This document shows positions 44,187 through 47,370 of a stretch of 64,000 nt of DNA, piece by piece. Below the pieces are notes generated by a model. It was not told the origin of the DNA and made no database searches. It worked only from the letters and a program-made list of their open reading frames with translations. This DNA comes from TPA_inf: Saccharomyces (Eukaryota): positions 224,001 to 288,000 of the forward strand of contig BK006948.2 in NCBI GenBank assembly GCA_000146045.2, given 5' to 3'. Positions within the stretch are counted from its first letter, which is position 1, and each line of letters opens with the position of its first letter. The position numbers and the translations under genes are program-made.

Positions 44187-45641
44187 ATGTTACTACGTTC
44201 TCTTACAAGTGCCTTCGTTTTAAGTGCTGGTTTGGCTCAGGCTGCTAGCAGCAGTAACAGTTCCACACCATCCATTGAAATTAAAGGCAATGCATTTTTT
44301 AATTCGGAATCAGGTGAAAGGTTTTATATCCGTGGTGTTGATTACCAGCCTGGTGGTTCTTCTAACTTGACTGATCCCTTAGCAGACGCATCTGTCTGTG
44401 ACAGAGACGTCCCCGTTCTGAAAGATCTAGGGATAAATACTGTCAGAGTTTATACTGTGGATAACTCGCAAGATCATTCCCATTGTATGAAACTATTGCA
44501 GGAGAACGGTATATACTTGATCCTGGATGTCAATACCCCCACGAGTGCTATTTCTCGTTACGATCCAGCCTGCTCCTATAACGCTGACTACTTACAAAAT
44601 GTCTTTGCCACCATTGATACCTTTGCTGATTACGACAATGTTCTAGGTTTTTTCGCTGGTAACGAGGTCATCAATAGTGTTAATACTACCAACACTGCTA
44701 CTTATGTCAAGGCAGTGGTCAGGGACATGAAGAAATACATCAAGGCTAGAAAATACAGACAAATTCCGGTAGGTTACTCGGCTGCTGATATCGTCGCTAA
44801 CAGACAATTGGCTGCTGAATACTTTAACTGTGGTGATGAAGCTGACGCTAGAATCGACATGTTTGGTGTTAATGACTATTCTTGGTGTGGTGAATCTTCA
44901 TTTGTGGTATCGGGTTATTCCACCAAGATGAAGCTATATCAAGATTACTCCGTTCCTGTCTTCTTAAGTGAATTTGGTTGTAACCAAGTCAAGAGCTCTC
45001 GTCCATTCACAGAAATTGAAGCTATCTATTCCACTCAAATGTCTTCTGTATTCTCCGGTGGGCTAGTCTACGAATATTCCAATGAAACTAACAATTACGG
45101 GCTCGTTCAAATTGATGGTGACAAGGTCACTAAATTGACAGATTTTGAAAACTTGAAAAATGAATACAGCAAAGTATCCAACCCAGAAGGCAATGGTGGT
45201 TACAGTACTTCCAACAACTATTCTACATGTCCTGATTATGAAAAGGGTGTCTGGGAAGCTAATAACACTTTGCCTGCTATGCCAAGTGCTGCTTCTGCTT
45301 ACTTCACATCTGGAGCAGGTTCTCCTATGGGAACCGGAATCGCCACCCAACAAAGTTGTGATGCTAAGGACGATGACGACGAAGAAGACGACGACACCTC
45401 CTCTTCATCCTCTTCTTCCTCTTCATCTTCATCTTCCGCTTCTTCATCTTCTGAATCATCATCCTCGACTTCAAAGGCATCTTCCTCCTCCCCTTCTGCT
45501 AGCGAAACGAGCTTGCTAAAATCTGCCGCATCTGCTACTTCGTCCAGCCAATCGTCCTCGAAATCAAAGGGTGCTGCCGGAATTATTGAGATTCCTTTGA
45601 TATTCCGTGCTTTGGCAGAACTTTATAACTTGGTTTTATGA
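44187..45641 (+). CDS. GAS5: GH72 beta-1,3-glucanosyltransferase with Ser-rich stalk and GPI-anchor signal, 484 aa
   Basis: It has a signal peptide and a GH72 catalytic region (FFAGNEV...SEFGCN), followed by a poly-Ser tract and a hydrophobic C-terminus. Confidence 0.88.
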   Translation: MLLRSLTSAFVLSAGLAQAASSSNSSTPSIEIKGNAFFNSESGERFYIRGVDYQPGGSSNLTDPLADASVCDRDVPVLKDLGINTVRVYTVDNSQDHSHCMKLLQENGIYLILDVNTPTSAISRYDPACSYNADYLQNVFATIDTFADYDNVLGFFAGNEVINSVNTTNTATYVKAVVRDMKKYIKARKYRQIPVGYSAADIVANRQLAAEYFNCGDEADARIDMFGVNDYSWCGESSFVVSGYSTKMKLYQDYSVPVFLSEFGCNQVKSSRPFTEIEAIYSTQMSSVFSGGLVYEYSNETNNYGLVQIDGDKVTKLTDFENLKNEYSKVSNPEGNGGYSTSNNYSTCPDYEKGVWEANNTLPAMPSAASAYFTSGAGSPMGTGIATQQSCDAKDDDDEEDDDTSSSSSSSSSSSSSASSSSESSSSTSKASSSSPSASETSLLKSAASATSSSQSSSKSKGAAGIIEIPLIFRALAELYNLVL

Positions 45642-45814: not shown

Positions 45815-46420
45815 TCATTCCAAGACGTTTTTGTCCATCTTATGTAATGCATCCTTGATGCTTTGCAATTCTACTTTCTGTCCACGAACGTGCAATCCAG
45901 ATGCAATGTTCTCTAACGCTGATGAGATCGAAGTTGAATCCTCAGGATTTAGTTGTTCTTGGATACTTTTATTTTTTTGCATATGTTGACGGATTTTTTG
46001 ATATGTGTAACTGATCGGCAGATACCTCTTTGCATCGGAAGCCGCATTCATTTGTGCATTCTTGCAGGAACATATTTCGGGTAGCTTGATTGAATTGTAA
46101 TTTACGTCAGTTTGTTGTTCATTTAGATCCGGTGACAACGCACTGTTGGAAGAGAAAGAGCTTGAACTACATTTATTCGAAAGTGATTGACAAAAATTCC
46201 TACTATGGGGGTCTGATCTACATTGCTTGCAGCTTCCAGGTATCCATGACCCATCCTCTTTAGTGATCGGTCTATTCTCGCTATCGTAGATTTCTTTGTC
46301 TCCACAGCATTTCGATATTGATTTCTTAGCATCGGATTCTATTTTCTTTTCTGAACAGCAAACGGGGACTAAGGATGGCATTATGTTATTCTTTTGGTTG
46401 CAACATGTTACTGGTTTCAT
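45815..46420 (-). pseudogene. Cys-rich ORF (201 aa from MKPVTCC; the open frame extends upstream to 46639); probable severed C-terminal half of the upstream bZIP gene
   Basis: The open frame on this strand runs from 46676 without an ATG and overlaps the YAP7 stop by 7 nt in another frame. It contains Cys clusters (KCCRNKD, TCCNQ, VCCSEKK, SCKQCRSD, CSCKNA) typical of YAP-family redox domains. This is the YOL029C position. Confidence 0.6.
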
Positions 46421-46632
46421 GGCATCTTTATTCCTACAACATTTTATTTTTTTGTTGCCACTGCCTGCACATGCATTGATACTGCTGCTGCATGAAGACA
46501 GAGGTGAATTAATATGGCCATCAAGCGATGAATTCGTTGAACTAAACTGTCTGCCGCTCAGATATTGATAATCGTTGGCTATATCAATCTCAGACAAAGA
46601 CTGGTCTGTTAATACCGCGGGCACATGAGATG

Positions 46633-47370
46633 TTAACAATGGGCCTTCAGCTTTCCTTTTTTTAAACTGACAGCGCCGATTGGTTTAAAGTTTTCTACCA
46701 TTTCTAATATCGAAATAGGATTGTCTGGCGGGTTTTCTGGCTGCTGTTGAAATGGAGTATTAACAATCAAAGGCAAGGCTTTTTGCAATTCGTTGTTTAA
46801 TGCTATTGATTTTTGCAAGTTTTCCTTTGTATCGGAAAACTCAGATTCCAGCAGTTTATATTTCCTTTGCCAATCATCGACCAAATTGTGTAGCATCTCA
46901 ACCTTCTCTTCCAGAACCTGGATTCTTGTTGTTCTGCGTTCCCTATATGCTCTTTGCGCATCTCTATTTTGCCTCCTTCGCTTTTCCACGCTATCGACAC
47001 CGTTTTCATCACCACTTCCGTTGCCTTCATCATCAGATTTCCCCTCATGACCTTTTGCGCCTTCGTTCTCATGATCTTTTGTGGTCATTTGGTCTTTCTG
47101 GTTGGAAGTTTGAACCTTCTTTATCTTGGACGATCCATCATTATTAGCTGATGCATCCCCGCGCTTGGATTTCGGTTTGCGGCCCGGTTTTAGGCGCTGT
47201 GGTAACTCCCAATTCTTGGATAACTTAATAGCTGACGGTCCTGATGTACTCACATTTCCATCTGGTGAGGATGGAGGTGGAGACGTCGTAGACATGGAAC
47301 CCTGTTTATGCCCCAATTTGAAGCCTTTGGGCTTTACGCTAACTGCTACTACAGACCTTCGTTGTCTCAT
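46633..47370 (-). CDS. YAP7: bZIP (YAP family) transcription factor, truncated form, 245 aa from MRQRRS
   Basis: It has a basic region-leucine zipper (KRRRQNRDAQRAYRERRTTRIQVLEEKVEMLHNLVDDWQRKYKLLESEF). The stop at 46633-46635 sits just 3' of an A7 run on the coding strand. Confidence 0.8.
   Translation of the reverse strand: MRQRRSVVAVSVKPKGFKLGHKQGSMSTTSPPPSSPDGNVSTSGPSAIKLSKNWELPQRLKPGRKPKSKRGDASANNDGSSKIKKVQTSNQKDQMTTKDHENEGAKGHEGKSDDEGNGSGDENGVDSVEKRRRQNRDAQRAYRERRTTRIQVLEEKVEMLHNLVDDWQRKYKLLESEFSDTKENLQKSIALNNELQKALPLIVNTPFQQQPENPPDNPISILEMVENFKPIGAVSLKKGKLKAHC

Follow-up and report, generated by a model that had tools for sequence, protein, structure and literature searches.

Evidence that a one-nucleotide homopolymer deletion splits the bZIP gene YAP7 into YAP7 and YOL029C in an S288C-type allele of Saccharomyces cerevisiae

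The stretch of DNA analysed here (the window) comprises 64,000 nucleotides of a Saccharomyces assembly (GCA_000146045.2, contig BK006948.2, positions 224,001 to 288,000 of the forward strand), and all coordinates given below are window positions. On its minus strand, between 45815 and 47370, lie two open reading frames (ORFs), YAP7 (YOL028C) and YOL029C, which are separated by a single frameshift. The locus almost certainly represents the S288C-type YAP7 allele, that is, one basic leucine zipper (bZIP) gene split by a one-nucleotide deletion in a homopolymer. This is what the original prediction, made from the letters alone, had proposed, and comparison with intact alleles, which carry eight A where the window carries seven, confirmed it. 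YAP7, whose paralogue from the whole-genome duplication is YAP5, encodes a transcription factor of the Hap4-like (Hap4L)-bZIP type. The following features make up the split gene:

46633..47370, minus strand: truncated YAP7 (YOL028C) ORF, 245 aa and the stop TAA at 46633-46635, from translation.
46657..46663, minus strand: A7 homopolymer (T7 on the top strand) and site of the deletion, A8 in intact alleles, from DNA comparison.
46633..46656, minus strand: out-of-frame tail GKLKAHC and premature stop; KKRKAEGP of the full-length alleles becomes KKGKLKAHC followed by the stop.
45815..46656, minus strand: C-terminal half (residues 239-518) of the full-length protein, stranded out of frame, with the stop TGA at 45815-45817 and no internal stop.
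45815..46420, minus strand: annotated ORF YOL029C, 201 aa, beginning where the stranded frame has its first ATG.

The YAP7 frame begins with ATG at 47368-47370, and its 245-aa product, which ends in ...AVSLKKGKLKAHC before the stop, is identical to a protein with the source name 'Yap7p [Saccharomyces cerevisiae S288C]' (P0027). The second frame, read mechanically as an ORF from TTG at 46639, overlaps the YAP7 stop at 46633-46635 by 7 nucleotides and runs to 45815, in agreement with the predicted layout. It had been described as open from 46676; it is open there, but its upstream limit lies further out, as the frame extends to 46684 and is closed by an in-frame TAA at 46685-46687. The predicted absence of ATG over 73 codons was reproduced when counted from TTG 46639, the first ATG being at 46418-46420. 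Given a stop probability of 0.065 per codon at the base composition of the window, a run of 290 stop-free codons has a probability of P ~3e-9, and the open second frame is therefore beyond chance. The two frames meet at the A7 run, exactly where they had been predicted to meet, and insertion of one A into this run yields a fused protein with the anticipated junction, ...AVSLKKRKAEGPLLTSHVPAV..., whose length is 518 aa rather than the approximately 510 aa expected. The 201-aa ORF exactly matches 'uncharacterized protein YOL029C [S. cerevisiae S288C]' (P0041), which aligns with residues 318-518 of full-length Yap7. YOL029C is a fragment of YAP7, namely the longest piece of the stranded half that begins with an ATG, and not an ancestral gene. 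A separate observation concerns the recent Pfam family PF28364 ('YOL029C_N'), which takes its name from this fragment of a split ORF; the corresponding region is an internal or C-terminal part of Yap7 in every orthologue that is intact.

Conservation of the fused frame among orthologues, a check that the original prediction had called for, was examined with the reconstructed 518-aa protein as the query. Full-coverage orthologues are present throughout the genus Saccharomyces. The S. cerevisiae cluster of 518-aa proteins alone holds 343 sequences, a close relative, probably S. paradoxus, has a 518-aa orthologue with 83% identity, and the orthologues of S. mikatae (517 aa), S. kudriavzevii (515 aa), S. 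uvarum (518 aa), and S. eubayanus (517 aa) are likewise covered over their full length. A further orthologue of 522 aa (P0006) shares 63% identity at 100% coverage. In the genus alignment, the junction L236-K-K-R-K240 is invariant, and long invariant blocks are found in the downstream half as well. The ratio of nonsynonymous to synonymous substitution rates (dN/dS, Nei-Gojobori method, four interspecies comparisons) is 0.12-0.23 for residues 239-518, similar to the 0.14-0.22 obtained for the retained N-terminal half. Together, conservation and low dN/dS indicate that the stranded half encodes protein and is subject to purifying selection in all cases where the frame is intact. The same A7 run and stop in other species, with an unconserved downstream frame, had been named as the outcome that would speak against a split gene; the outgroup ORFs proved to be single and conserved, and the intact 518-aa frame is the ancestral state.

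The codons of the LKKRK junction differ among species. The four other-species loci that were read contain CTG AAA AAG AGG, CTG AAG AAA AGG (twice), and TTG AAA AAA AGG, and an A8 tract is absent from the junction in all four. On the loci compared, the A8 tract is thus specific to S. cerevisiae, in which a TTA leucine codon followed by AAA AAA A creates a slippage-prone run. The following series of events would account for the locus. The ancestral gene encoded a 518-aa protein, and in the S. cerevisiae lineage its Leu-Lys-Lys-Arg codons became TTA AAA AAA AGG, generating the A8 tract. One A was then lost, presumably through replication slippage, so that the frame shifts after Lys238 and seven foreign residues, GKLKAHC, are added before the stop. 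The resulting product retains the Hap4-like motif for the CCAAT-binding complex (CBC) and the bZIP domain for DNA binding and dimerisation, and lacks residues 239-518 with all 16 cysteines, the PGSCxxCxxDPxxxxFC motif, and the C-terminal helical module. Such a truncated Yap7 is reported, in the literature discussed below, to leave YHB1, the gene for the nitric-oxide-detoxifying flavohaemoglobin, unrepressed. Nonsense-mediated decay of the A7-allele mRNA is possible.

The lesion itself was resolved by comparing the DNA of three full-length S. cerevisiae alleles with that of the truncated allele (loci L001-L025); the length of the A run in different isolates was another point that the original prediction had singled out for comparison. 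The reconstructed 518-aa sequence is identical, residue for residue, to an existing entry, 'Yap7p [Saccharomyces cerevisiae]' (P0028), and 518-aa versions are also found in strain YJM789 and in many ScRAP assemblies. All nine close 518-aa loci (L007-9, L020-25) read GTTT-A8-GG-AAA-G, a divergent S. cerevisiae lineage (L001-6) reads A8-G-AAAA, and ten loci encoding the 245-aa product (L010-19) share A7-GG-AAA with the window. The run is accordingly A8 in the 518-aa alleles and A7 in the 245-aa alleles. One full-length locus (L008) has a coding sequence that differs from that of the window solely by one extra A, which identifies the lesion as a one-nucleotide deletion in the A8 tract.

A sequencing or assembly artefact had been offered as the alternative, in which the true run is A8 and the strain carries no frameshift. 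Homopolymers are classic error sites, and a gene model from FostersO described below (P0039), with an additional A in a second A7 run, could be such an error. However, the ten A7 loci belong to ten chromosome-scale assemblies that are distinct and vary in haplotype around the gene, their flanks differing from the window by 2-9 mismatches per 3.7 kb, and the exact 245-aa product occurs in 128 blocks of the sequence collection. Moreover, PMC6545440 and PMC4860858 report that the frameshift has functional effects in laboratory backgrounds. The presence of A7 in at least ten independent chromosome-level assemblies led us to drop the artefact explanation, to which we give a vanishingly small probability, in favour of a segregating one-nucleotide deletion. 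A7 was found in a YJM-series genome as well as in ScRAP assemblies, and the A7 allele is common and widespread in S. cerevisiae, beyond laboratory strains. The expectation that the laboratory-strain allele encodes a truncated Yap7 was correct, with the refinement that laboratory strains are not the sole carriers of this allele.

No observation speaks against the split gene itself, although some caveats apply. Where exactly the published frameshift lies, and which strains were used, is available through two secondary statements. In the window and in all ten A7 loci, the stranded frame is free of additional stops, and this intactness may mean either that the event is young or that the remnant is still of some use. 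A7 is present on at least three gene haplotypes, and two of these also occur with A8 in an otherwise identical form. Among loci L007-L025 and the window, all four combinations occur between A7/A8 (gene position 707) and the flanking single-nucleotide polymorphisms at 399 (G/A) and 1301 (T/C), which points to recombination within approximately 900 bp or to recurrent or reverse mutation of the tract. Rather than a single clean event, the history of A7 and A8 must therefore have involved recombination, recurrence, or reversion.

A more far-reaching version of this history would be that S. cerevisiae is losing YAP7 function repeatedly, perhaps as an adaptation, and that the A8/A7 tract is a hot spot of mutation in both directions. 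Loss of Yap7 is reported to derepress YHB1 and to raise nitric-oxide resistance, so that the polymorphism could be selectively maintained in some niches. We regard this version as tentative and rather unlikely. Beside the A7 allele, there is an independent nonsense allele, Q440*, in which CAA at 46052-46054 is changed to TAA on an A8 background that has no other lesion. It is found on 23 contigs and is carried by loci L030-L033, and its 439-aa product (P0029/P0032) lacks the most conserved C-terminal module.

Other irregular gene models were encountered at this locus. A second coding-strand A7 run lies at 46447-46453, inside the stranded half, and the FostersO model (P0039, 312 aa, ending in ...KKNKML before a stop) corresponds to one additional A in this run, which could be either a genuine further frameshift allele or an error in sequencing the homopolymer. 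An S. cerevisiae model of 419 aa (P0040, GMC44846.1) opens out of frame (MRTKAQKVMR...) and follows Yap7 from about residue 109 onward, which suggests a further indel close to the N-terminus or a misassembly. Finally, a 450-aa model (P0038) was considered as a third truncation and rejected, as its locus translates to an intact 518-aa protein.

The deletion divides the protein between two well-defined regions, and its domains and motifs are distributed over the two halves as follows:

47173..47223, minus strand: Hap4-like CBC motif, residues 50-66 (PF10297, 30.6 bits, cutoff 21.1), retained.
46819..46986, minus strand: bZIP basic region and leucine zipper, residues 129-184 (PF00170 bZIP_1, 30.6 bits, cutoff 27.6), retained.
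46304..46441, minus strand: four Cys-Cys pairs (KCC...TCC...VCC...KCC), residues 311-356, partially conserved in the genus.
46190..46240, minus strand: Cys motif PGSCKQCRSDPHSRNFC, residues 378-394, a hallmark of the HapX/Hap43/Yap5/Yap7-type C-terminal region.
45818..46024, minus strand: C-terminal module YLPISYTYQKIRQHMQKNK ... RGQKVELQSIKDALHKMDKNVLE, residues 450-518, conserved and predicted to be helical (predicted local distance difference test, pLDDT, 70-84).

In the retained half, the residues of the Hap4-like motif are invariant in all eight sequences of the genus alignment. Residues 134-146 of the basic region read QNRDAQRAYRERR; the only variation within the genus is N in place of D137 in one sequence (P0005). 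In the fungal Yap (AP-1-like) bZIP family, basic regions carry the Yap/Pap1-type signature N-x-x-A-Q-x-x-F/Y-R, which is present in these residues. In the lost half, which contains all 16 cysteines of the fused protein, the motif PGSCxxCxxDPxxxxFC stands out in that its P-G-C-C-D-F-C columns are invariant in the homologue alignment. Saccharomyces proteins have a single copy of this motif, preceded by the four Cys-Cys pairs. Distant Yap7 homologues (P0008-P0011), such as that of Maudiozyma humilis, contain 2-4 tandem copies; in P0009, the repeats lie at residues 278-303, 331-357, 386-412, and 441-600.

To place the lost half among known families, a profile of residues 361-518 was searched exhaustively against representative proteins, since a word-indexed search had returned fragments only. 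The exhaustive search matched 88 representatives. All 20 matches that were sampled have a bZIP domain and 17 of these 20 the Hap4L motif, and a PAP1 domain was found in none of them. The CxxCxxxP...FC motif occurs in 68 of 78 distant relatives, and the sources place the profile relatives in CTG-clade yeasts and as far away as Pyronema. Because the source names of the distant relatives are uninformative ('hypothetical', 'jun-like', 'BZIP domain-containing'), their HapX/Hap43 label rests on domain architecture and literature. The fused protein itself gave no match to PF08601 (PAP1) at E<=1. A sequence search of the PDB with the C-terminal module returned an unrelated protein as its best match (E = 0.11), and the best Foldseek match against the PDB had E = 5.5; the AlphaFold model of the module has a pLDDT of 62 and a predicted TM-score (pTM) of 0.55, and this moderate confidence makes the lack of fold matches weak evidence. 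The lost Cys-rich half can thus be assigned to the C-terminal region of Hap4L-bZIP proteins (HapX/Hap43/Yap5/Yap7) and not to the Yap1/Pap1 redox domain. The original prediction of a Cys-rich C-terminal half hence held, and its attribution to a Yap1-type redox-sensing domain did not.

The two-frame arrangement could in principle be compensated during expression. A -1 ribosomal slip, or insertion of an A by RNA polymerase, would restore the full-length frame, and some functional Yap7 would still be made. The sequence A_AAA_AAA at 46657-46663 is a perfect X_XXY_YYZ slippery heptamer in phase with YAP7, a -1 slip on it would yield the native ...LKK-RKAEGP..., and the stranded frame is intact in every A7 locus read. 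However, the 117 nucleotides downstream have no unusual structure (minimum free energy -23.3, shuffle mean -24.4, z = +0.34). Nor is the two-frame arrangement conserved, as other species and many strains have a single frame and the four other-species loci lack the A8 tract, so that selection had no chance to build a frameshift signal. In addition, PMC6545440 reports that the truncated allele is unable to repress transcription. We consider recoding highly improbable at this locus, and favour a frameshift that truncates Yap7.

Splicing was considered as another way of restoring the frame. Two 481-aa 'Yap7p' models (P0044, P0047) correspond to the window minus a 110-nucleotide GT..AG segment at 46589-46698. 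A true intron was rejected, as the 5' site GTAGAA does not conform to the consensus and TACTAAC is absent from 46589-46698. These properties identify the 481-aa models as annotation artefacts, in which gene predictors spanned the frameshift by means of a false intron.

A further explanation is that the two ORFs are both functional genes, with YOL029C (201 aa, Cys-rich, and lacking a DNA-binding domain) being expressed separately in A7 strains and having a function of its own. Its frame is open in every A7 locus read, a Pfam family (PF28364) bears its name, and one modified peptide (KPVTCCNQKNNIMPSLVPVCCSEK) is assigned to it in an appendix table of a proteomics study (PMC12786128). The peptide list is long and of low stringency and includes dubious ORFs; the peptide may indicate that the stranded frame is translated, for which it is weak evidence. 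Moreover, the outgroups without exception, and many S. cerevisiae strains as well, have one ORF in place of the two, which makes the separateness of YOL029C a derived and recent condition, and the opening of the frame is followed by 73 codons without ATG. We judge a second functional gene to be quite improbable and treat YOL029C as the stranded half of YAP7 rather than as an independent gene.

The frameshift in YAP7 is already known, having been published in 2015 together with functional tests (Merhej et al, 2015), according to later papers. One of these, a review, states that a frameshift interrupts YAP7 in laboratory S. cerevisiae strains, and that the role of Yap7 in YHB1 repression was revealed in 'wild' strains with full-length Yap7 (PMC6545440, citing Merhej et al, 2015). 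Another mentions the frameshift in YAP7 of laboratory backgrounds (PMC4860858, citing Merhej et al, 2015, Mol Microbiol 96:951). The original prediction had referred to such literature for S288C, and these two restatements bear it out. As further described in PMC6545440, the truncated Yap7 of laboratory strains has lost the Tup1-interaction domain, does not interact with Tup1, and does not repress; when Yap7 is lost, YHB1 is derepressed and resistance to nitric oxide increases. PMC5471220 names Yap7 as a potential orthologue of Hap43/HapX.

Beyond what these secondary sources state, the present analysis adds the exact site of the A8-to-A7 change, the S. cerevisiae-specific origin of the A8 tract, the presence of A7 outside laboratory strains, and the Q440* allele. 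The gene models with a false intron and the Pfam family named after a fragment are small additions useful to annotators. Studies of natural variation in nitrosative-stress resistance could also gain from such small additions, and the overall picture is unchanged. A caveat that is already published applies to genome-wide data for 'Yap7' from S288C derivatives (chromatin immunoprecipitation, deletion collections, and two-hybrid screens), which concern a truncated, non-repressing protein.

The downstream neighbour of the split gene is a GAS5-like gene (Glyco_hydro_72) at 44187-45641 on the plus strand. Its product measures 477, 484, 489, and 494 aa among strains (L014, L019, L023, L024), presumably owing to polymorphism of a Ser-rich C-terminal tract.

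Compared with known systems, the locus corresponds most directly to the frameshift of Merhej et al (2015) as described in the secondary sources. Both concern the same gene and a frameshift that keeps the DNA-binding half and removes the Tup1-interacting C-terminal part, and there is no essential difference between them in what those sources report. Like the iron regulators HapX, Hap43, and Yap5, Yap7 has a Hap4-like CBC motif N-terminal to its bZIP domain, and it shares with this lineage the C-terminal Cys motif and the terminal helix, which are out of frame here. The Hap43/HapX lineage retains the cysteine-rich domain (CRD) that Yap5 uses for Fe-S cluster sensing (PMC6545440 and PMC5471220). 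Fe-S binding by the CRD is a feature of Yap5 in the literature, and for the Yap7 cysteines it would be an analogy. In contrast to the iron-responsive HapX, Hap43, and Yap5, Yap7 is described in the same two papers as a constitutive, Tup1-dependent repressor of YHB1.

The Yap1/Pap1 redox CRD (PF08601) resembles the lost half of Yap7 in being a Cys-rich region C-terminal to a Yap-type bZIP domain. Unlike that domain, the lost half has no PF08601 match, and neither its sequence nor its predicted fold matched a solved structure, a set in which the Yap1 redox domain would be represented. The extreme C-terminus of Yap7, RG-x-x-V-x-x-x-S/D-V/I-x-x-A-L, resembles the end of the Yap1 c-CRD, a similarity that serves as a lead rather than as a test. 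Other strain-specific loss-of-function alleles are the FLO8 nonsense mutation of S288C and the SSD1 truncation of W303. As in these cases, a natural or laboratory-lineage allele disables a regulator, and annotation and large data sets reflect the mutant. Unlike the FLO8 and SSD1 alleles, the YAP7 event turns one gene into two ORFs of the annotation, and its allele is frequent among strains other than laboratory ones.

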